From NCBI GenBank assembly GCA_015523565.1, contig WAKA01000090.1:1-15246 (forward strand): DNA of 15,246 nucleotides. The letters are read 5' to 3'. Positions within the stretch are counted from its first letter, which is position 1; each line of letters begins with the position of its first letter. Position numbers and translations under genes: made by a program. This DNA is from Candidatus Heimdallarchaeota archaeon (GTDB lineage: Archaea; Asgardarchaeota; Heimdallarchaeia; Heimdallarchaeales; Kariarchaeaceae). The notes beneath the pieces were generated by a model. It had not been told where the DNA came from. It worked only from the letters and a program-made list of their open reading frames with translations, and ran no database searches. Positions 2,674 through 15,246 of this stretch are shown here, one piece after another.

Positions 2674-2820
2674 CCTGAAAACGACTAGAGATTTTGCCAG
2701 CTGCAAAAGAGATTCATCGGCATGCATTTCCTTTTGTCGGATATTTTTTGAATGAAATTTCCTTGAAATCATTTATGAAAAATCCAGTATTTCCAGATGT
2801 TTAGCTGTTGTTTAATTATT

Positions 2821-3264
2821 CTATGCCTTTGTCTCATTCAGCAGTTTCTTGGACCATAATCTGTACAAAGGTTCGAGGATTGCACGTATTCTCATTTGGT
2901 TTTCGTCAGTCATTTCAACGTGGGAGATGCGTTCAGGATCAATTTCAATGCCCAACTCGTCAAGATAAGAGAGAAAGAGATTCTTTATCTCTATGTGAAT
3001 GGTTTTCAATATGTTTACTGCAACATCATCATTGTTAATTGCCACATATAAATTATCAAAACCGTCTTTGGAAAACGTGACCTTTATTGACTGGAATGTC
3101 ATTTCCTCAATGTTTTGACCGATTGCGTCTGAAGAATAGCTGTTGATGGCACTCAAAAGCCCTGAAAAAAGCACTGAATTGACATTGATCGTGTCAATAC
3201 CTTTTATCGGATATTCAAATAATGGAATTCCTGAATTTGAGATCACCAAGAACTTGAACGGCAT
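2821..3264 (-). CDS. Longin-like domain protein, copy A (147 aa)
   Basis: Beta-beta-alpha start (FLVISNSGIPLFEY), then LFSGLLSAINSY...GQNIEEM...KVTF...LYVAI and a closing helix. This pattern is typical of Asgard longin/roadblock-type proteins. Confidence 0.8.
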   Translation of the reverse strand: MPFKFLVISNSGIPLFEYPIKGIDTINVNSVLFSGLLSAINSYSSDAIGQNIEEMTFQSIKVTFSKDGFDNLYVAINNDDVAVNILKTIHIEIKNLFLSYLDELGIEIDPERISHVEMTDENQMRIRAILEPLYRLWSKKLLNETKA

Positions 3265-3561
3265 TTACCCCACTCCAAAGAACCTGAAGAACCGCCTTCT
3301 ACTCTGTTTGTTTCTCTTGAATTTTTGCAAAAGCCTCATTGAAAGGTGGTTTCCGACATCAGTCACCCGATGAGGGTAATATTCCTTGTATATGTCCAAT
3401 ATGGCATTGACCAATTGGGGCAGATTCTCCTCATTTAAATTTTCAGGATTTATCCCAATATTTTGACATGCCAATTCAACAGTATAGTATGCAGACATGC
3501 TAATTTTTTCTTCAAGAACTTCGACGACTCTATAGAATACCTGTTTTTTCAGTTCACTCAT
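3265..3561 (-). CDS. Small helical protein, copy A (98 aa), with a basic/aromatic C-terminal tail
   Basis: True start is most likely ATG 3561 (MSELKKQ), preceded by GGAGG and lying 4 nt after the upstream stop. Copy B has the same start. Its stop abuts the longin ATG. It ends RRRFFRFFGVG. Confidence 0.85.
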   Translation of the reverse strand: MSELKKQVFYRVVEVLEEKISMSAYYTVELACQNIGINPENLNEENLPQLVNAILDIYKEYYPHRVTDVGNHLSMRLLQKFKRNKQSRRRFFRFFGVG

Positions 3562-3565
3562 AATT

Positions 3566-4168
3566 TCATTCCTCCACACCTTCCTTGTAGGAGATAACAT
3601 AGATGCATTCCACTTGTTCCAGCAATTCCTTGACTTTCTCTTGATCCAACCCGATGGCTTCAATCTCACTTTCATTCAAGACTGTCTTTCCGTTTCGTTT
3701 GCACCCCAGATGGATGTAATTCAGGACGTATTCCTCGTTGACTGTCAAGGATGAAACTATCATTTGCCTGAGTTGTTGTGCCACATAACAACCAAGATCA
3801 ATGAATGCATTTTTTTCATCCTCCCTGATTTGGAAGTTATGTAGAATGGTCTTGACTTTTTGATCATCCCCTTGTGCCTCACCCATTGTTTTCATGAGAT
3901 TGCCGAACGGGCACTTTTTGACTCCAATGAAATTAGTACCCACATTGTCAAAGTTGGTGACAACTTCCTTGTCGATGTAAAAGAGTGGTGAACTATGATT
4001 CTTGATGTCTTCCATTGCCTCATCCATGCTTTCATAGTCCTTGTGACCCATTCTTCCCACGATCTGTGAACCAATTTTCATGATTTCCTGCATGATTTGG
4101 TTATAGCTTTTACCTTCTTCTAGAAGACTTCTAAAATCCCCTATTTCGAATTCATCAATATTAGACAT
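3566..4168 (-). CDS. Cys4 V4R/MetOD1-like domain protein, copy A (200 aa)
   Basis: C86 in KKCPF, C127 in LGCYV, C156 in HLGCK and C188 in VECIY, resembling V4R-type metal-binding domains. GGAGG precedes the ATG. The CDS is secure; the fold assignment is tentative. Confidence 0.7.
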   Translation of the reverse strand: MSNIDEFEIGDFRSLLEEGKSYNQIMQEIMKIGSQIVGRMGHKDYESMDEAMEDIKNHSSPLFYIDKEVVTNFDNVGTNFIGVKKCPFGNLMKTMGEAQGDDQKVKTILHNFQIREDEKNAFIDLGCYVAQQLRQMIVSSLTVNEEYVLNYIHLGCKRNGKTVLNESEIEAIGLDQEKVKELLEQVECIYVISYKEGVEE

Positions 4169-4257: not shown

Positions 4258-4330
4258 TTGGGACGAATTTATTTAACTTTTACCAAATAAAAAATTATAA
4301 CAAATAAAAATAATATTGAATTCAGGGATT

Positions 4331-4774
4331 TTATACCTTTATCTCATTCAGCAGTTTCTTGGACCATAATCTGTACAAAGGTTCGAGGATTGCACGTATT
4401 CTCATTTGGTTTTCGTCAGTTATTTCAACGTGGGAGATGCGTTCAGGATCAATTTCAATGCCCAACTCGTCAAGATAAGAGAGAAAGAGATTCTTTATCT
4501 CTATGTGAATGGTTTTCAGCGTGTTCATGGGAATATCGTCATTGCATATCACAACATACAGATTGTCAAAACCGTCTTTGGAAAACGTGACCTTTATTGA
4601 CTGGAATGTCATTTCCTCAATGTTTTGACCGATTGCGTCTGAAGAATAGCTGTTGATGGCACTCAAAAGCCCTGAAAAAAGCACAGAATTGACATTGATT
4701 GTGTCAATGTTGTCTATGGGATACTCAAATATCGGGATACCAGAATTTGAGATCACCAAGAACTTGAACGGCAT
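4331..4774 (-). CDS. Longin-like domain protein, copy B (147 aa)
   Basis: Paralogue of 2821-3264 with the same motifs. Confidence 0.8.
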   Translation of the reverse strand: MPFKFLVISNSGIPIFEYPIDNIDTINVNSVLFSGLLSAINSYSSDAIGQNIEEMTFQSIKVTFSKDGFDNLYVVICNDDIPMNTLKTIHIEIKNLFLSYLDELGIEIDPERISHVEITDENQMRIRAILEPLYRLWSKKLLNEIKV

Positions 4775-5071
4775 TTAATTCCCTCCGAAGAACCTGAAAA
4801 ACCGTCTCCTCTTCTGTTTTTTTCCGTCGAATTTTTGCAAAAGCCTCATTGAAAGGTGATTTCCGACATCAGCCACCCGATGAGGGTAATACTCTTTGTA
4901 TATGTCCAAAATGGCATTGACCAGTTGGGGAAGATTTTCTTCCTTCAATTCCTCAGGGGTTATTCCAATGTTCTGGCATGCCAATTCCACAGTATAGTAT
5001 GCCGACATGCTGATTTTTTCTTCAAGAGCTTCAATAACCCTATAGAAAACCTGTTTTTTCAGTTCGCTCAT
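4775..5071 (-). CDS. Small helical protein, copy B (98 aa)
   Basis: ATG 5071 (MSELKKQ) after GGAGG. Paralogue of 3265-3561. It ends KRRRFFRFFGGN. Confidence 0.85.
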   Translation of the reverse strand: MSELKKQVFYRVIEALEEKISMSAYYTVELACQNIGITPEELKEENLPQLVNAILDIYKEYYPHRVADVGNHLSMRLLQKFDGKKQKRRRFFRFFGGN

Positions 5072-5075
5072 TATT

Positions 5076-5678
5076 TCATTCCTCCATTCCTTCCTTGTAG
5101 GAAATAGCATAGACACATTCTACTTGTTCCAGCAATTCCTTGACTTTCTCTTGATCCAAACCTATGGCTTCAATCTCACTTTCATTCAAGACTGTCTTTC
5201 CATCCCGTTTGCATCCCAAATGGATGTAATTCAGGACGTATTCCCCGTTGACTGTCAAGGATGAAAGAATCATCTGCCTGAGCTGTTGAGCCACATAACA
5301 GCCAAGATCAATGAATGTGTTTTTTTCACCTTCCCTGATTTGGAAGTTATGTAGAATGGTCTTGACTTTTTGATCATTTCCTTGTGTTTCCCCCATTGTT
5401 TTCATGAGATTGCCGAACGGGCACTTTTTGACTCCAATGAAATTAGTACCCACATTGTCAAAGTTGGTGACAACTTCCTTGTCGATGTAAAAGAGTGGTG
5501 AACTATGATTCTTGATGTCTTCCATTGCCTCATCCATGCTTCCATAGTCTTTGTGACCTACCTTCTCAACAATCTTTGAGCCAACCTTCATGATTTCCTG
5601 CATGATTTGGTTATAGCTTTTACCTTCTTCAAGAAGACTTCTAAAATTCTCTATGCCAAACTCATCGATATTAGCCAC
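5076..5678 (-). CDS. Cys4 V4R/MetOD1-like domain protein, copy B (200 aa)
   Basis: GTG 5678 follows GGAGGAATTTTT and aligns with the copy A start. All four Cys are retained. Confidence 0.7.
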   Translation of the reverse strand: MANIDEFGIENFRSLLEEGKSYNQIMQEIMKVGSKIVEKVGHKDYGSMDEAMEDIKNHSSPLFYIDKEVVTNFDNVGTNFIGVKKCPFGNLMKTMGETQGNDQKVKTILHNFQIREGEKNTFIDLGCYVAQQLRQMILSSLTVNGEYVLNYIHLGCKRDGKTVLNESEIEAIGLDQEKVKELLEQVECVYAISYKEGMEE

Positions 5679-5907: not shown

Positions 5908-6300
5908 TCATTCTTCAGACAGACATTGGATAAGTTCCTCCCTCTGTTCTTTGGACAGCTTCCGCAGGAAATCTTTGTCTTGGAACAGCCCCATGATTTG
6001 TGTGGGGGTTAGGGCAACTAGAGACGCAGATGGCAACGACTGAATCGGGATCTGCTCGGCAGTCAGCATCTGAACCTGCTCGGCAGTCAGCATCTGGATC
6101 TGCTCGTGAGACAGCATCTGAACCTGCTCGGCAGTCAGCATCTGGATCTGCTCGTGAGTCAGCATCTGGATCTGCTCGTGAGACAGCATCTGAACCTGCT
6201 CGGCAGTCAGCATCTGGATTTGTCTAGGAGTCAATCCTTTTAACTCCTTTTCAGTCAAAAATTGAACAAAATGGATTTTCTTGGTTTCTTCAAGGGACAC
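5908..6300 (-). CDS. Octapeptide-repeat protein (130 aa), a stand-alone paralogue of the C-terminal domain of the upstream nuclease
   Basis: GTG start with AGGAG overlapping the upstream stop. Seven QML(T/S)(A/H)EQ(V/I) units. GLFQDKDFLRKLSKEQREELI versus GLFRDKDFLRKLSKEQREELI in the upstream protein. Confidence 0.85.
   Translation of the reverse strand: MSLEETKKIHFVQFLTEKELKGLTPRQIQMLTAEQVQMLSHEQIQMLTHEQIQMLTAEQVQMLSHEQIQMLTAEQVQMLTAEQIPIQSLPSASLVALTPTQIMGLFQDKDFLRKLSKEQREELIQCLSEE
6049..6216. repeat. 24-bp tandem repeat, 7 units (coding VNTR)
   Basis: Contiguous units (GAT/AAC)CTGCTCG(GC/TG)AG(T/A)CAGCATCTG starting at 6049, 6073, 6097, 6121, 6145, 6169 and 6193, plus a degenerate unit at 6217-6240. 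Confidence 0.97.
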
Positions 6301-6311
6301 TAAGCATTCTC

Positions 6312-7199
6312 CTACTCATTTTCAATGCTCATTAAATAGCGGATAAGTTCCTCTCTCTGTTCCTTAGACAGTTTCCGCAGGAAATCTTTGTCTCGGAACA
6401 GACCAATGACCTGTTCGGGGCTGAGTGCAGCCAATTGGTCATTGGTCAGGGATTTAATTTGTTCAGGTGTCAGACCGATCAGCTCATCTGGCGTCAGAAG
6501 CTTTACAAACTCTGAACCACCTGCTTTCAACCCCTCCCTTACAAACTCCTCTTCGGAATCATACTTCTCCTTTATTATCTCTCGGATCTCACTGACGACA
6601 TCGGGCATTGTATCCTCTCTGAAATAGATTACCCATGCAGAGATAAATAGTTTTTCCATCGGGTGAAGGCTTTCATCTTCAAACATTCTTCGGAATCTAG
6701 AGGGCACCAGGTTATCTAGGAGCTGTTGCAGGTAATAAAATGCCTTGTGGTCGGACGGCAGGACATCCATGACAAGCTCCGGGAATTCGGGAAGGTACAG
6801 GGCTCGAAAATGCGGGGTTCTGCATATGAAAAGATCCATTTCCCTTGTTTCAGCGGTCACTGCAAAAATGCGGCATCGGCTCATTGCCATGGTCTTCAAA
6901 TCAGATTTGTGTTTTTTGTTGTGCCTCACCGCCAAGCAGGTGTAGATATTGGATTGGTATATGGTATATCCTGTCGGCCAACGCTCCAGTTCTATGGGGA
7001 TGACCAATCCGTCTTTCTTGAACATGGCGTCGGGTTCCTGCTTTGATATCGGGTCTATGAGCGACGCCTCCGTCCGTCCGACGACCTGCCAGCCCTCAAG
7101 TCCGAATGCCTTGTTGAAAGCTGGGGAAAACTCTTTTCTTAGTTCAAAAACAAACTGGAATGATGATTCAGAAGTGAAGTCCTTTACGACAGTCAACAA
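6312..7199 (-). CDS. PD-(D/E)xK-fold nuclease, Rpn/YhgA-like architecture, with a C-terminal LTPEQ-repeat domain (295 aa)
   Basis: E44, P56-D57 (EPDAMF), E70-x-E72 (IPIELER) and Q82xxxY86. The C-terminus reads LTPDELIGLTPEQIKSLTNDQLAALSPEQ. TTG start at 7199 or 7196. Confidence 0.7.
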   Translation of the reverse strand: MLTVVKDFTSESSFQFVFELRKEFSPAFNKAFGLEGWQVVGRTEASLIDPISKQEPDAMFKKDGLVIPIELERWPTGYTIYQSNIYTCLAVRHNKKHKSDLKTMAMSRCRIFAVTAETREMDLFICRTPHFRALYLPEFPELVMDVLPSDHKAFYYLQQLLDNLVPSRFRRMFEDESLHPMEKLFISAWVIYFREDTMPDVVSEIREIIKEKYDSEEEFVREGLKAGGSEFVKLLTPDELIGLTPEQIKSLTNDQLAALSPEQVIGLFRDKDFLRKLSKEQREELIRYLMSIENE

Positions 7200-7480: not shown

Positions 7481-10400
7481 ATGTCTATTTGTTTTGTTAA
7501 AAAAGGGATTGCACTTGTGATTGCCGTTGGTTTGATTGCATCAGTTCAATTTATTGGAGGCGGGGGCAGGGCGGCGAAAATGGCAATGCAACAGGGATTT
7601 GTGGCAAGAAGCCAGAAAGGGCGAGTTAATCCGCAAACTGGACTGAACCAAGTTCAACAGGATTCCTTGCAAAGTCATAAGGAATATGTCAATGGGTTAA
7701 TTAGCAAGATATGGAAAGAAAACTTTACGGATACATCAGCATTTGCAAAGGTAGCAGGGCAGACAATTTTCAGTGACCTGACTTCATTTGCATCAAGCTA
7801 TGCGAGTGGGGGGGATGGATCTGTCGGCAACCCATATATCTTTGATGGGCTATTCATCAACGCATCGGTTACGGAAATGTATTTTGACTCAGTAACGGCA
7901 TATTTTGTGCTCAGGAACAGTTTGGTTTTGGGAAAGATGACAATATCTGCATCTAATGTCAAAAGCATCACGAATACAGTTTTGTTCTCATCATCCTATG
8001 CCCTGCGGTTGTTGGGGGTACAGGACATGGAGATTTCAGGGAACACAATTGTGGCCAATGGAACGTCCTATGCAATAGCCATTTATGGAAGTAAAATTTT
8101 GGACATCAGGAACAATGTAATCTTAACTTCTGAAACTGCGGGAGCGGTAGTGCTTTCATCGGGAAGTTTTACGGTCATTAATGTAAATTTCACCCAAAAC
8201 CAGTTCCAGACACTTAGTTCAGTAATTTATTCGACATCAGGATTTGGAGGGGACAATCGGCTGATTGGGAACATCTTCAATTCTTCCAGTACATCCACAT
8301 TCATCACCATTCTGCCTAGAGGGAACATTGAGTTCAGCGACAATACAGTCATGGTTCATTATTCCCCGAACAAATGGGATGGAAACATCTTTTTCGGTGG
8401 GATAGGGGGAGGAACTGGAGATGTTTGGACAATCAGGAACAATACGGTTTCTGGATTGGAAGATGGGTTCTTTTTTTCTTCGCCAAAGGTGCTGGAATTA
8501 GAGAACAATACAATTCGTGAAAGCCTTCATGGGGTGAGATTTTATGATGGGAACAACCAGTCAAGAATTCATGGAAATATAATTGAAGACACACAAATCG
8601 GGTTTTACATCAGAATTTCAGACAACAATACCATCGATGGAAGTATTCTCCGTCGCGTTGGTTTTGGGGCAATTTTTGAATTTGCCACAGGCAATGTTTT
8701 GAATAATACGTACATTGAGGACTTTAATCTGCTGATGTATGACATCACTGCGAACAATCCTCCAAATCGGGACTTTAACACAAATACGGTTGGCAAGAAA
8801 GATGAAGGGATCAATGTCAAGACAGATGGGGATCTTGATGCCATGGTAACAACGGAGGGATTGCCAGGGAATGGTACACCTGATGACCCATACGTCATTT
8901 CTAAATTGACAATTGATGGGGGATTGGGATTGGCAATTACAACAAATTATACAATAAAACTGAAGGATCTTGTCATAAAAAATGTCTTTGCAGACATTGT
9001 CAAGCCTTTAAGCATTACCTCAGACAATGGCTTAATCCTTGAGAATGTGACAGTCATCAATGCGACAAACGGGATATTCTTGGATACGAAGGGATCCTTG
9101 GTAATCATCAACTCCAGCTTTTCTGGGTTCATGTATTTTTCGACGATCAAAAGTGGAAAGTCATCATTCATTGACGGGATTAGGTATACGGATTCAGAAG
9201 AGGGGCTTTCGCTTAGCTTGGAAAACTCTGTCTTCTCAAATTTCGAATTGAGAAATGTCTATGGCAGTCAGCAAATATACGTAAGTGGCACAAACCTGAC
9301 CTTCACGGACGGAAGCATCACGGGTGGTACAAATGCCTTCAAGGTGTCAGGTTCCAGTAATGTAACAATTAAGCGAACAATAATTAATGGGACTGAAAAG
9401 CCTGTTTATGTTTCAGAGGTTTTTGGGTTCGTGTTCAAGGACAATTATGTGACATTATCGGAATATAAAGGGGTGGTGGAATATTCAGATAACATAAATG
9501 TTACTGGGAACATGTTCGTTGACAACAAGGACAGTGTGTTCTATATTGAGGTCAACTACTTGAACAAGCCATTCTCGATTTGGAACAATTATTTCATAAA
9601 CAATAGTTGGGAAAAGGGAAGGGGGCATATTGAAACATATGATGAATTGGTTCTTACTGTTGACGGAGTTGGGAATTACTGGTCTGATCTTCGCGATGGG
9701 GAAACAGAATATTATGTGCAGGGATATGCCGATACAGCACCAATTCGACCTTCAATAGAGCCAGTGCAACGGGATGTTGAATACGACACCACAATTTCAA
9801 TCAGTATGGCAAGTAAGTTTCCGGTTCCCTTGGATTCATGGGTCTTGTTCCAAAATGGGACGATGATACAGAACGGGACATGGAATACGGATGGAAACCA
9901 ATTCACATTCAGCCCAATGAAATTGGGGAAATATGCCTTTGAAATTGGGGTTCGAGACAAAAACAATGTCAAAGGACTGAACACAAGCATTGTGATCAAT
10001 GTTGTCGATACAACGGCACCAACAATCGTATCTGCTGGGAATGTCATCATCCATGAGGGAGAGACAGTGAATCCATTGGTTTGGCAAGTGAATGACTGGT
10101 TCCCGGATTCCTACGAGGTGCTGAAGAATAACACCTCCTTTGTGACAGGAACGTGGAGCTCTACAGAAAACATCACTCTTGACATTTCCGGATTGGGAAT
10201 TGGAACATATAATTTCACCCTCATTGCAAAAGACAAGAGTGGAAACACGGGGGTTGATGAGATCATTGTCCAAGTCCTACCAATAACCTCGTCAAGTACC
10301 ACGTCAAATACGAAAACAGAAACGCCTACAACGACGACATCCCTACCCAAAGTTTCTATGGACACCACCACCACCATTTCAAATAAGGGCAATGGAAAAG

Positions 10401-10501
10401 AAAAATCAACGAATGGACGGTTCCTGTTGTTTATTGTGATCATCATCAATATGCTTGCACTATATTTCGGGGCAAAGTCTTATTATGAATCACGTCATTG
10501 A
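7481..10501 (+). CDS. Membrane-anchored surface protein with NosD/pectin-lyase-like right-handed beta-helix repeats and Ig-like domains (1006 aa)
   Basis: N-terminal KK plus hydrophobic signal/TM segment. Two cap motifs (GDGSVGNPYIF, GNGTPDDPYVI), many (I/F)xxNxI repeats, GNYWSD, Ig-like DTTAP...GTYNFTLIAKDKSGN, a Ser/Thr-rich stalk and a C-terminal TM helix. Many NxS/T sequons. Confidence 0.88.
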   Translation: MSICFVKKGIALVIAVGLIASVQFIGGGGRAAKMAMQQGFVARSQKGRVNPQTGLNQVQQDSLQSHKEYVNGLISKIWKENFTDTSAFAKVAGQTIFSDLTSFASSYASGGDGSVGNPYIFDGLFINASVTEMYFDSVTAYFVLRNSLVLGKMTISASNVKSITNTVLFSSSYALRLLGVQDMEISGNTIVANGTSYAIAIYGSKILDIRNNVILTSETAGAVVLSSGSFTVINVNFTQNQFQTLSSVIYSTSGFGGDNRLIGNIFNSSSTSTFITILPRGNIEFSDNTVMVHYSPNKWDGNIFFGGIGGGTGDVWTIRNNTVSGLEDGFFFSSPKVLELENNTIRESLHGVRFYDGNNQSRIHGNIIEDTQIGFYIRISDNNTIDGSILRRVGFGAIFEFATGNVLNNTYIEDFNLLMYDITANNPPNRDFNTNTVGKKDEGINVKTDGDLDAMVTTEGLPGNGTPDDPYVISKLTIDGGLGLAITTNYTIKLKDLVIKNVFADIVKPLSITSDNGLILENVTVINATNGIFLDTKGSLVIINSSFSGFMYFSTIKSGKSSFIDGIRYTDSEEGLSLSLENSVFSNFELRNVYGSQQIYVSGTNLTFTDGSITGGTNAFKVSGSSNVTIKRTIINGTEKPVYVSEVFGFVFKDNYVTLSEYKGVVEYSDNINVTGNMFVDNKDSVFYIEVNYLNKPFSIWNNYFINNSWEKGRGHIETYDELVLTVDGVGNYWSDLRDGETEYYVQGYADTAPIRPSIEPVQRDVEYDTTISISMASKFPVPLDSWVLFQNGTMIQNGTWNTDGNQFTFSPMKLGKYAFEIGVRDKNNVKGLNTSIVINVVDTTAPTIVSAGNVIIHEGETVNPLVWQVNDWFPDSYEVLKNNTSFVTGTWSSTENITLDISGLGIGTYNFTLIAKDKSGNTGVDEIIVQVLPITSSSTTSNTKTETPTTTTSLPKVSMDTTTTISNKGNGKEKSTNGRFLLFIVIIINMLALYFGAKSYYESRH

Positions 10502-11870: not shown

Positions 11871-12377
11871 GTGAGAATTGCAATCATTGGCTCAAATCGC
11901 GGAAACGAGAAACTTAATGCCTTTGCTTTTGAGGCAGGACAAGCTCTTATGGATTGGGGACATACCATCATCAATGGAGGGATGGGCGGCATCATGGAAG
12001 CAAGTGCAAAAGGTGCAAGGACAAGTGTCTCTTTTGAGGAACATAGACTTATCGCAATCCTTCCCGTCAATGACCCAAGCAAAGGAAATCCATATTCAGG
12101 CGTGAAAATTGCAACCCATTTGGGAACTGGCCGAAACTACATGATCATACTCAATTCAAATGCCGTTCTTGCCATTGGAGGTGGTGCGGGTACTTTGAAC
12201 GAGATTGCAACAGCATGGGAACTCAAACGACCCATTGCAGCGTTTGTCGGTGCGGGTGGATGGTCTGAGAGATTGGCAGGCACTTCCATTGATTCTAGAC
12301 GATCCGACAGGATAAGCCCAGTCCATTCAATCAGTGAACTGGAGGATTGGCTTTCAAGTCTTGATGCAGAACAGTAG
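11871..12377 (+). CDS. TIGR00725 family / LOG-like (SLOG superfamily) Rossmann-fold protein
   Basis: IAIIGS, NGGMGGIMEASAKGA, GTGRNYMI and AIGGGAGTLNEIATAW motifs. GTG start. Confidence 0.9.
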   Translation: MRIAIIGSNRGNEKLNAFAFEAGQALMDWGHTIINGGMGGIMEASAKGARTSVSFEEHRLIAILPVNDPSKGNPYSGVKIATHLGTGRNYMIILNSNAVLAIGGGAGTLNEIATAWELKRPIAAFVGAGGWSERLAGTSIDSRRSDRISPVHSISELEDWLSSLDAEQ

Positions 12378-12770: not shown

Positions 12771-12795
12771 AGTAAAACCTTAAATAGCGTGGTGA
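12771..12795 (+). promoter_or_regulatory. Putative BRE-TATA promoter for the 538-aa gene
   Basis: AGTAAAACC followed by TTAAATA (12780-12786), 20-26 nt before ATG 12806. GGTGA at 12791. Perfect palindrome CTTGAATTCAAG upstream at 12750-12761. Confidence 0.55.
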
Positions 12796-12805
12796 GGCAT
12801 TTCCT

Positions 12806-14422
12806 ATGATGAGTTTATTGGAAAGTCTTCGACAAGGAGATGAGGAGGCATTTTCAAGCCTAGAGGAAACAGAAGCGTCCGAAATCATTGAAAGCCTACC
12901 AGAACTGATTCAAGTGGCATTTGAACAGGAAGACAGGATGCGCTCGTTTGCCGTTTTCAGAAAGATACACGAGGTGCTCCAATCCAATCCACAGGAAATA
13001 GATAGACATTTTGGGACTATTGTGGATGCAATAGAACGGATTGTGGACATGAAACCCCCTGAAGATGACCTACTTCACAGTGCAGGCACGATGCTCTACA
13101 CTCTCGTCGTCCAGAAATTTATTGTGGATCCAATGCTGGTTGACCAGCATGCAAGATTTCTATTGAAATTGATGTCTGCTGGCGGGACATTCGGTCAGTT
13201 GACTGTTTCGCCAATAAGCCAAGCCGCCCAGAACCGACCAAAAGTCATAGCACCATATGTAAGGGAACTGTTTGAAGCCATAAGGGCGGGAAATGATGTA
13301 CTGATGGTTGCACTTTACGGGTTGTATCCACATAACAAGGAAGGATTTGAAGAGGAATTTCCAACCCTGATGGAGCTTTATAGATCGAAACCAGCACACA
13401 AGTCAATCACCCTGAAGATCATCGGGGACATTGCCGCATCCCGACCTGAATTGGTAAGGGATCATCTTGAAGAATTCCTTCCCGACCTGCAAGGTATGGG
13501 GACATCATATCAAGCCCTAGTTATCTTCACCGAGGTTGCAAAGGTTGATCCTGAGGCTGTTGAACCCTTTATTGACCAAATCTATGCAGAGGCAGAGAGC
13601 CAACCGCATATGGCATATTCAGTGCCCAACCTGCTCGGCTTGGTCGGACGGAAGATGAGAACTGAGGATATGCTTGAGAAGCTGATGGCATTGTCCAAGA
13701 AGGTTCCTGAGGAAGCCCTCCCCTTGGTGCTGGCAGAAGTCAGGAACCTCGGTGAGGTTGACACGTCCCTGTTGGATGAATATATGGATGAAATCAGGGC
13801 ATTTGAATCACACCAACAAGAAGGCGTGCGTGACCAAGCAAGGATGATTGTTGACCTATATGAGGGTCGCTCATTGAGGACACTTGAACTTTCCATAGAG
13901 GAACAGAACCGCCGGATTGCAGAAGCTGTCAAGACTACGGAGGATCTCAGGAGGTATGTTGACGAGAACATCTCTGAGCTCAAGGATTTCATTGCCCAAA
14001 TCAACAAGAAGCTTCCAATCCCCAAGCGGTTTTCCACAAGGGGGATGATAAGGAAGACCCTCGTCCTTGAGTTTGTATGTGAAGGTGATTCGCCAAACTG
14101 TCTGTTCCCTGATGACAGACCGTTCACAACTGAGACAAAGGACTGGAACAAATGGCTGAAAATAGCCTTTTCAGGAATAAAGCTGGGCAAAAGCCTGATC
14201 GTGCCCGCCAGCGGAGGTGACGCCATCAGTGCCGTAAAGGACGCATATGACGCCTATAAGGACAGATACGACAAGGATTTCCTGTCTTACATCAGGGAGC
14301 CATTCCTGACAAGTTCAGAACAGGACAACCTAGTGAACCAACTGCGTGATGCAAAATTCTTCAACGTGTTCAACTATGATGCACAGACTGCCAAATGGGT
14401 CTGCACCATGTGTGGATTATAA
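12806..14422 (+). CDS. HEAT/ARM alpha-solenoid, coiled coil and Cys4 domain protein; Melted/VEPH1-like, lacking the PH domain (538 aa)
   Basis: HEAT-like units ([39 protein letters not shown]) and a coiled coil ([16 protein letters not shown]). The C-terminal KKLPIP...LEFVC...NCLF...WLKIAF...KFFNVFNY...WVCTMC matches the pre-PH region of VEPH1 as I recall it. Confidence 0.75.
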   Translation: [538 protein letters not shown]

Positions 14423-14559: not shown

Positions 14560-15246
14560 TCATGGCCGACCACCTATAACGTTCTTTTCCCAAAGTTCCC
14601 CAAGAGTGTATGTTTCTAGCCAGTCCCTAAGTTGTTCTGTTTCCAACCGTTTTCCTTGTGAATGTCCCTTTTTGTATTCAACAACAACAATAGCATCCTC
14701 GCTGAAATAATCTAGGAGCCGAGGAGATTGTGTACAAAGAATAAATTGAATATCAGTTGACCGTTTCATAACCGCTTCCCAGAACAGTAACAGAGCCTTT
14801 GGGTGTAATCCCAATTCAGGTTCATCAATCAGGATCAGGCAAGGGTAATCTTCTTGGAAGATGGTGACAAGCAATCCAACCAGACGTTTGGTTCCGTTTG
14901 AAAGATCGACAAAATCAAAGATATGATCCGCATTTGTATGTCTCCATTCCAGTAACACCATGGAATTGTTCAATGGGTTTAATCGAAAATGGAATTCCTT
15001 GAAAAATGGCGCGGCAAGGTTGATGATTGTTTCGATCTGATAAAGCAGTTTTGGTTGGTTTTGTGCCAGGCGATACAGAACTGAAGAGAGATTTTCTCCA
15101 TCCCCTTTCAGTACCCAATTGTCATGAACTGACGATGACTTTCCCAAAGGAGTGGTTGCACTCACATCAGAAAAATGGTATACATAGAGACGTTTTTGCT
15201 GTTCAAATACCTCTTTTAACCCCTCGTTCAACCAATTGAAGTCAAC
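14560..15246 (-). CDS. AAA_21/ABC-type (SMC-like) ATPase, C-terminal part; 5' end lies outside the window
   Basis: Signature LSNGT, Walker B/D-loop ILIDEPELGLHP, switch CTQSP, and terminal LGELWEKNVIGGRP. The frame stays open to the window edge (VDFNWLNEG...) and no Walker A is present in the window. Confidence 0.88.
   Translation of the reverse strand, partial: VDFNWLNEGLKEVFEQQKRLYVYHFSDVSATTPLGKSSSVHDNWVLKGDGENLSSVLYRLAQNQPKLLYQIETIINLAAPFFKEFHFRLNPLNNSMVLLEWRHTNADHIFDFVDLSNGTKRLVGLLVTIFQEDYPCLILIDEPELGLHPKALLLFWEAVMKRSTDIQFILCTQSPRLLDYFSEDAIVVVEYKKGHSQGKRLETEQLRDWLETYTLGELWEKNVIGGRP

Follow-up and report, generated by a model that had tools for sequence, protein, structure and literature searches.

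Does a gene in a Candidatus Heimdallarchaeota genome encode a relative of Melted/VEPH1? This family has been described as having only ARM and PH domains, and the gene was said to emerge with the pseudocoelomates (PMC6734325). The animal protein is a growth-signalling adaptor; in experiments, it is recruited to the membrane and acts on the TOR, FoxO, Hippo or TGF-beta pathways (PMC6734325). The archaeal gene is an ORF call at positions 12,806 to 14,422 of the forward strand, and it encodes 538 amino acids. The window (the whole stretch of 15,246 nucleotides that we analysed) is the entire contig C90 of a 3.57-Mb assembly, which is about 90% complete and has no 16S gene. A sequence-only reading of the gene had proposed that it is a homolog of Melted/VEPH1 that lacks the PH domain and that shows the ancestral core of the family.

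A homolog of Melted/VEPH1 without a PH domain

We found that the ORF is a bona fide homolog of eukaryotic Melted/VEPH1. A phmmer search over 1.84 billion protein representatives returned 292 proteins, including sequences annotated as "protein melted" from a spider (E = 4.7e-31) and an octopus (E = 9.9e-20), each of which matches in two stretches. With BLASTP, spider Melted aligns across the solenoid (24% identity over 328 columns; E = 2e-17) and then, in the same order, across the C-terminal domain (25% identity over 158 columns), and the alignment stops where the PH domain of the spider protein begins. We also built profiles from 25 animal sequences only and ran them against the 8,891 reading frames of the archaeon's own genome. 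The profile of the ARM region gave this ORF 101.6 bits, versus 20.9 bits for the next protein, and the profile of the C-terminal domain gave it 100.3 bits, versus 10.7 bits for the next. The profile-profile probability was 99.8-99.9% across the ARM and C-terminal regions (99.9% for ARM). Our animal reference was the spider, octopus, and nematode proteins that are named "melted". Because the C-terminal domain is not a repeat and matches alone, we can exclude a generic likeness among HEAT repeats. The proposed homology is borne out by phmmer, BLASTP, and the animal-only profiles, as well as by the comparison of structural models that is described below. We did not find any paper that ties VEPH1 to archaea or to eukaryogenesis, or Melted to Asgard archaea, but the protein may be listed in an ESP table.

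The eleven archaeal motifs on which the homology had been proposed are all present, in the order given, and we compared the equivalent blocks with spider and octopus "protein melted". The matches were thought to run along the whole length of VEPH1, but the SEIIESL block carries no weight, because it is not conserved even among the archaeal orthologs and because the animal-only profile matches only from around residue 133. The absence of the PH domain stands: we found no match to it, and the stop codon arrives two residues after the last cysteine (GL intervenes, so the stop is not immediate as had been described). The protein is therefore a PH-less homolog, and not a VEPH1 ortholog in the textbook sense.

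Like animal VEPH1/Melted, the archaeal protein has a colinear ARM-type solenoid followed by a four-cysteine domain, and it is encoded by a single copy (one tblastn match in its own genome). It differs from the animal proteins in lacking both the PH domain and a long low-complexity insert, and the identity is just 19-25%. Also, the archaeal protein has no membrane anchor, unlike animal Melted, which is recruited to the membrane: no transmembrane stretch was found in the 538 residues (the highest 19-residue hydropathy is 1.28).

The ORF is a real gene of Heimdallarchaeia, probably from the family Kariarchaeaceae. We consider it to be real because it has 24 further relatives (35-80% identity) and because its AlphaFold model has ordered helical repeats. 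Several of these relatives are labelled as Heimdallarchaeota LC_2, Kariarchaeaceae or Hodarchaeales. (The family names of host groups were inferred from named homologs in kin genomes.) Upstream of the start codon, at 12,778 to 12,797 on the forward strand, we noticed by eye a TATA-like AT-rich box (about 12,780-12,787) and the Shine-Dalgarno-like word GGTGAGG (12,791-12,797). A scan for promoters and terminators gave results at chance level, with a tool that was built for bacterial promoters.

Could the contig be eukaryotic or mis-binned, or the match be a generic HEAT likeness after all? The contig is somewhat atypical: its GC content is 41.4%, versus 38.6%, its tetranucleotide rank is 102 of 114, and the GC3 of the ORF is at the 97th percentile. 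However, genomes from the same genus hold the gene at 57-77% identity, and these copies group with it in our tree (100/100). Relatives of two further genes from this contig are encoded on other parts of the genome, the context is prokaryotic and intron-free (as it is for an archaeal copy on a 201-kb contig), and the non-repeat domain matches independently. So, the gene does belong to Asgard archaeal genomes, and we consider an artefact of either kind to be extremely improbable; for the family as a whole, it is already refuted.

A solenoid, a linker, and an unannotated domain

In the AlphaFold model, helical repeats (residues 1-353, pLDDT about 90) are followed by helices at 357-400 and then by an alpha/beta domain. 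The first region (12,806 to 13,864, forward strand) is an ARM/HEAT-like alpha-solenoid according to the model, the animal-only profile, and Foldseek, which matched it to armadillo/importin proteins. Residues 133-338 or so specifically match the N-terminal region of animal Melted. The helices that follow (13,874 to 14,005, forward strand, from the AlphaFold model) form a linker that is probably a coiled coil. Both a HEAT/ARM solenoid and a coiled coil had been read from the sequence; the solenoid is confirmed, while the coiled coil is a prediction, as the pLDDT of the linker in the full-length model is only about 58-67. In many protists the linker is lengthened by long heptad runs, and animals have a low-complexity insert instead.

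The C-terminal alpha/beta domain (residues 401-538; 14,006 to 14,419 on the forward strand) has no Pfam model, and we call it the Melted core domain. It is the most conserved portion of the protein: among the prokaryotic copies, identity is about 40-72% in this domain and 22-62% in the solenoid. When residues 372-538 were folded from a 135-row alignment, the model had a pLDDT of 87 and a pTM of 0.83. This model matches the model of a "Melted-like protein" with a TM score of 0.82 (153 residues, rmsd 2.2), and the next rows score at most 0.34. Neither the 538-residue protein nor this domain belongs to a family in Pfam, NCBIfam, or PADLOC. Searching the PDB with the protein sequence gave no match, and feature searches of the ESM Atlas gave nothing usable. 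Comparing the domain to PDB structures did not yield a clear match either (Foldseek found none at E = 0.001, and the best VIA Z was 3.5), which is no proof of a new fold. We also considered a pore-forming hairpin at residues 445-485 and set it aside, as the hydropathy is modest (mean best window of 1.07).

As the sequence-only reading had noticed, the domain contains four cysteines, although the spacing within the first pair is C425-x6-C432 (14,078 to 14,101, forward strand) and not x5. The second pair, C533-x2-C536 (14,402 to 14,413, forward strand), follows a beta-hairpin in the model. In the alignment of 135 sequences, C425 and W450 are invariant. All four cysteines are present in 97 rows, only the first is present in 37, and one row is intermediate. 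The loop cysteine and the CxxC motif were lost jointly in three of three independent losses, all in eukaryotes, which suggests one shared metal site (p = 0.25; three events are too few to reach significance). As judged from the sequences, C425, C432, C533, and C536 are probably a Cys4 zinc site. This site is not essential to the fold everywhere, because one third of the eukaryotic rows lack it.

Relatives in protists

The closest eukaryotic relatives in the phmmer results are from protists (Amoebozoa, CRuMs, Rhodelphis, and SAR). They include proteins from Cavostelium, Clastostelium, Filamoeba, Diphylleia, Rhodelphis, Phaeomonas, and Polykrikos. The named matches are from animals, Amoebozoa, CRuMs, Rhodelphis, stramenopiles, and alveolates, and we did not identify any in Discoba or Metamonada. 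Thus, the family is widespread across eukaryotic supergroups and is not specific to animals, and linking the archaeal gene to animals, as had been done at first, was too narrow.

The protist proteins share the C-terminal domain, and in most of them the solenoid and the coiled-coil linker precede it, as in the archaeal protein. The highest identity, with the protein from Cavostelium, is 36% across the whole length and 48% in the C-terminal domain. They differ from the archaeal protein in their added tails and in the coiled coil, which is often longer; also, some of them have lost three of the four cysteines. The PH tail is already present in Amoebozoa and in Diphylleia, whereas the tails of other lineages are ankyrin-FYVE or CaaX-like. 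There are 18 of the CaaX-like ends, some of them from near-duplicates. PH, FYVE, and CaaX-like ends are membrane-targeting devices. In a 2,118-residue protein from Phaeomonas (P0176), the unit of ARM region plus domain appears three times, and this protein has a CaaX-like end.

Rare and patchy in prokaryotes

Across 400 Asgard genomes we found 14 intact full-length genes and one more that is cut by the end of a contig. The intact copies are in 7 of 12 genomes of the archaeon's own family and in two genomes of the family of Thorarchaeota AB_25; within the class, three further families have them in 2 of 3, 2 of 22, and 1 of 2 genomes. We found no copy in another family of this order (31 genomes) and no intact gene in a 135-genome Asgard family. 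The domain profile matches 24 of the 400 genomes, one of them marginally. Our first search of these genomes gave many weak matches that were due to generic HEAT repeats and that vanish if the domain profile is used. Five genomes contain broken remnants of the gene, whose best matches are to their own lineage (51-93% identity over short stretches). Because these pseudogenes exist, gene loss must be common.

The gene is rare, but not absent, in non-Asgard prokaryotes. There is one copy from Myxococcales and one from Planctomycetota (1 of 301 Planctomycetota genomes), and full-length bacterial copies, including the one from Myxococcales, are on long contigs (148, 401, and 121 kb). When 185,579 species genomes were scanned with two short patterns, an approach that misses distant copies, 14 loci were found (13 archaeal and one from Planctomycetota). 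We found no match to the family in plasmids, phages, or viral contigs. Beyond close kin, nothing recurs in the gene's neighborhood, so no partner is indicated.

Some NCBI labels do not match the genomes: the gene for a protein labelled "Methanobacteriota" (P0005/L005) lies in a genome from the same genus as the window, and a record labelled "Thorarchaeota" (L047/L016) belongs to the window's class. We also noticed a very divergent protein with the ARM region and the domain (P0090, L053:1123-2673) on a gene-dense, prokaryote-like contig. It has a long branch, and its placement is unstable.

Vertical descent or transfer?

We built a tree of 63 rows from the solenoid and the domain (LG+C20+F+G4), with 20 long-branched or redundant rows excluded. 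The tree is unrooted. All 30 of the prokaryotic rows are on one side of a branch (support 99/95), and a reduced quick tree of 43 rows has the same split with a support of 83. The window's protein and the copies from its genus lie within a group of 13 rows that includes most of its own family (100/99). The Thorarchaeia-like copies form their own group (100/100), and the Hodarchaeales-type copies also group together. The two bacteria sit in an open fork at the base of the prokaryotic side. The eukaryotic supergroups are not cleanly recovered. The archaeal sequence is not nested inside the eukaryotes, as it might have been after a recent transfer. The idea that it displays the ancestral ARM and zinc-binding core fared less well: the tree has no root, the gene occurs only patchily across Asgard genomes, and it is also present in two bacteria.

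If the tree is rooted on Thorarchaeia, then the eukaryotes are in a fork with lineages of Heimdallarchaeia, as vertical descent predicts. If it is rooted among the eukaryotes, then it implies one early transfer. Rooting by the domain's other archaeal architectures (see below) failed, because the topology of the domain-only tree shifted with the taxon set. A grouping of eukaryotes with Hodarchaeales was not rejected (p-AU = 0.33), and neither was the monophyly of eukaryotes in the domain tree (p-AU = 0.52).

We lean towards vertical descent from Asgard archaea to eukaryotes. It is possible, although we doubt it, that the gene arose in a eukaryote or proto-eukaryote and was transferred once, early, to an ancestor of Heimdallarchaeia; it would then have shed the tail and moved laterally into Thorarchaeia and a small number of bacteria. 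In that case, what we see in archaea would be a trimmed form and not an ancestral one. The gene's patchiness across Asgard genomes would fit, and proto-eukaryote transfer has been argued to be a general cause of patchy signature proteins (PMC12395588). Also, the eukaryotic branches are longer and more diverse, and the midpoint root lies among the eukaryotes; identity between the Thorarchaeia copies and the copies labelled Hodarchaeales is 41-51%, and the former cluster with P0025 (91/91); and the two bacterial copies show that the gene moves. However, the prokaryotic group is not nested within any eukaryotic lineage in the 63-row tree, the copies sort largely by host lineage, and the pseudogenes show that loss is common. 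The two groupings that were not rejected also count against an early transfer, as do the domain's divergent occurrences in other prokaryotic architectures.

An origin in Myxococcota or Planctomycetota, with transfers from there to Asgard archaea and to eukaryotes, seems very unlikely to us. The full-length copies on long bacterial contigs would fit, as would the open fork in which the bacteria are placed within the prokaryotic group. But just two bacterial lineages have the gene, neither bacterium is sister to the eukaryotes, and the mobile elements and viral contigs that we searched do not contain it.

The domain in other architectures

Three further prokaryotic architectures carry the C-terminal domain. 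Two of these are in Asgard genomes, and the sequences are divergent. In prokaryotes, the domain lies at or near the C-terminus, behind differing input modules. In a protein of 2,463 residues (L054:856-8247), the domain comes last, after FG-GAP repeats, Ig repeats, and one transmembrane helix, and a protein from Helarchaeota (P0111) has LVIVD repeats and a transmembrane helix before it; the repeats of both proteins are extracellular. TPR proteins also end in the domain (L020, 1447-3312, and L021). The receptor-like and TPR proteins from other Asgard families have extra cysteines and, ahead of the domain, another cytoplasmic region in common. By eye, this shared region looks like an adaptin appendage.

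In two metagenomic proteins and one eukaryotic protein (among P0076, P0084, and P0163), the domain follows a Roc GTPase. Roc GTPase proteins with the domain at the end are encoded at L033:133-2295 and L058:364-3404; in L058, the LRR-Roc part and the part with the domain are two adjacent ORFs. The domain may resemble the C-terminus of TORNADO1-type proteins from plants and of some bacterial ROCO proteins. In the bacterial ROCO proteins that we sampled, the slot after COR is filled by CHAT, TIR, or EAD1, and the domain is absent from all 15 sampled bacterial ROCO loci. The archaeal protein resembles a few ROCO proteins in that the same domain takes their post-COR slot, but it has no GTPase. Given the varied input modules before it, the domain behaves as a portable output module.

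Other genes in the window

Upstream of the Melted-like gene and on the same strand, a SLOG cluster 4 protein is encoded at 11,871-12,377 (428 bases away). A truncated ABC-type ATPase at 14,560-15,246 is convergent with the Melted-like gene, and its best match is HEC-01A from PADLOC (E = 1.5e-69).

Further upstream, positions 2,818-4,164 and 4,328-5,674 are a 1,349-base tandem duplication with 90% identity. The unit contains three genes (147, about 136, and 200 amino acids) and is absent elsewhere in the genome. The three genes have no significant match in Pfam or NCBIfam; the 147-residue protein looks roadblock/longin-like by eye. Two minus-strand ORFs at 5,908-7,199 (130 and 295 amino acids) contain 24-base repeats that encode an ALTTAQ-like repeat, and several copies of the 295-residue gene (70-89% identical) occur at other places in the genome, a pattern that a mobile element would produce. 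At 7,481-10,501, a 1,006-residue beta-helix protein with a PKD-like domain and hydrophobic ends is probably anchored at the surface. Finally, an 878-residue ORF at 1-2,634 runs past the contig's edge; it has no family match, and it has paralogs on four other contigs (21-33% identity).

Proposed function

By a narrow preference, we propose that the archaeal protein is a soluble adaptor with a zinc-clamped output domain, and that a protein with the ARM region and the domain was inherited from Asgard archaea, with frequent losses and sporadic transfers to bacteria. The protein would be cytoplasmic. The fast-evolving solenoid would bind variable partner proteins, and the slowly evolving C-terminal domain, with one zinc on C425/C432/C533/C536, would dock on or assemble a downstream complex. 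Lacking an anchor, the archaeal protein would reach the membrane only via its partners. The protein with the ARM region and the domain would have passed by inheritance from Asgard archaea to early eukaryotes, with many losses in both, and the two bacterial copies would be sporadic transfers. Eukaryotes would have added PH, ankyrin-FYVE, or CaaX-like lipid tails, which would fix the protein at the membrane.

The main functional rival to an adaptor is a sensor-effector for defence or conflict, in which the solenoid would sense an invader's protein and the C-terminal domain would trigger a response. Because the post-COR slot of bacterial Roc-COR proteins holds the swappable CHAT, TIR, and EAD1 domains and is filled by the Melted core domain in P0076, P0084, and P0163, a role in defence is conceivable. 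Patchiness, pseudogenes, and transfer are compatible with defence genes, and in this contig the flanking genes encode a SLOG protein and a HEC-01A-like ATPase. However, PADLOC gives no match for the protein, the neighbors at five other loci show no recurring defence genes, the gene is single-copy, and its domain is evolving slowly instead of diversifying. The role in growth signalling that is known for the animal adaptor (PMC6734325) also argues against a role in defence. We think that a defence role is unlikely and that an adaptor is the better explanation.

More tentatively, the four-cysteine domain might be an undescribed signalling module that was born in Asgard archaea, where membrane receptors, TPR and ARM adaptors, and Roc GTPases would all use it as their output. 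One form, fused to the ARM region, would have been inherited vertically and would have become VEPH1/Melted after tails were added.

Implications

The archaeal Melted-like gene is a candidate eukaryotic signature protein. Among the closest known classes are the signature proteins of Asgard archaea that are built as alpha-solenoids, such as the clusters that resemble INTS4 or adaptin (bioRxiv 10.64898/2026.10.28.762692). In contrast to that class, the link to Melted rests on a non-repeat domain and can be detected by plain sequence search, so convergence of repeats is excluded. Another difference is that the Melted-like gene is not strictly Asgard-only, as two bacteria have it.

Our results push the origin of this signalling adaptor, which was supposed to be animal-specific, further back than the protists, to the archaea that are related to eukaryotes. 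They also expose a third, unannotated domain in VEPH1/Melted, and no other part of the protein is as well conserved from archaea to protists. The compact prokaryotic version, with just 538 residues, is on offer for structural studies and biochemistry. The archaeal receptor-like proteins and the GTPase fusions hint at what the domain does and make its role testable.
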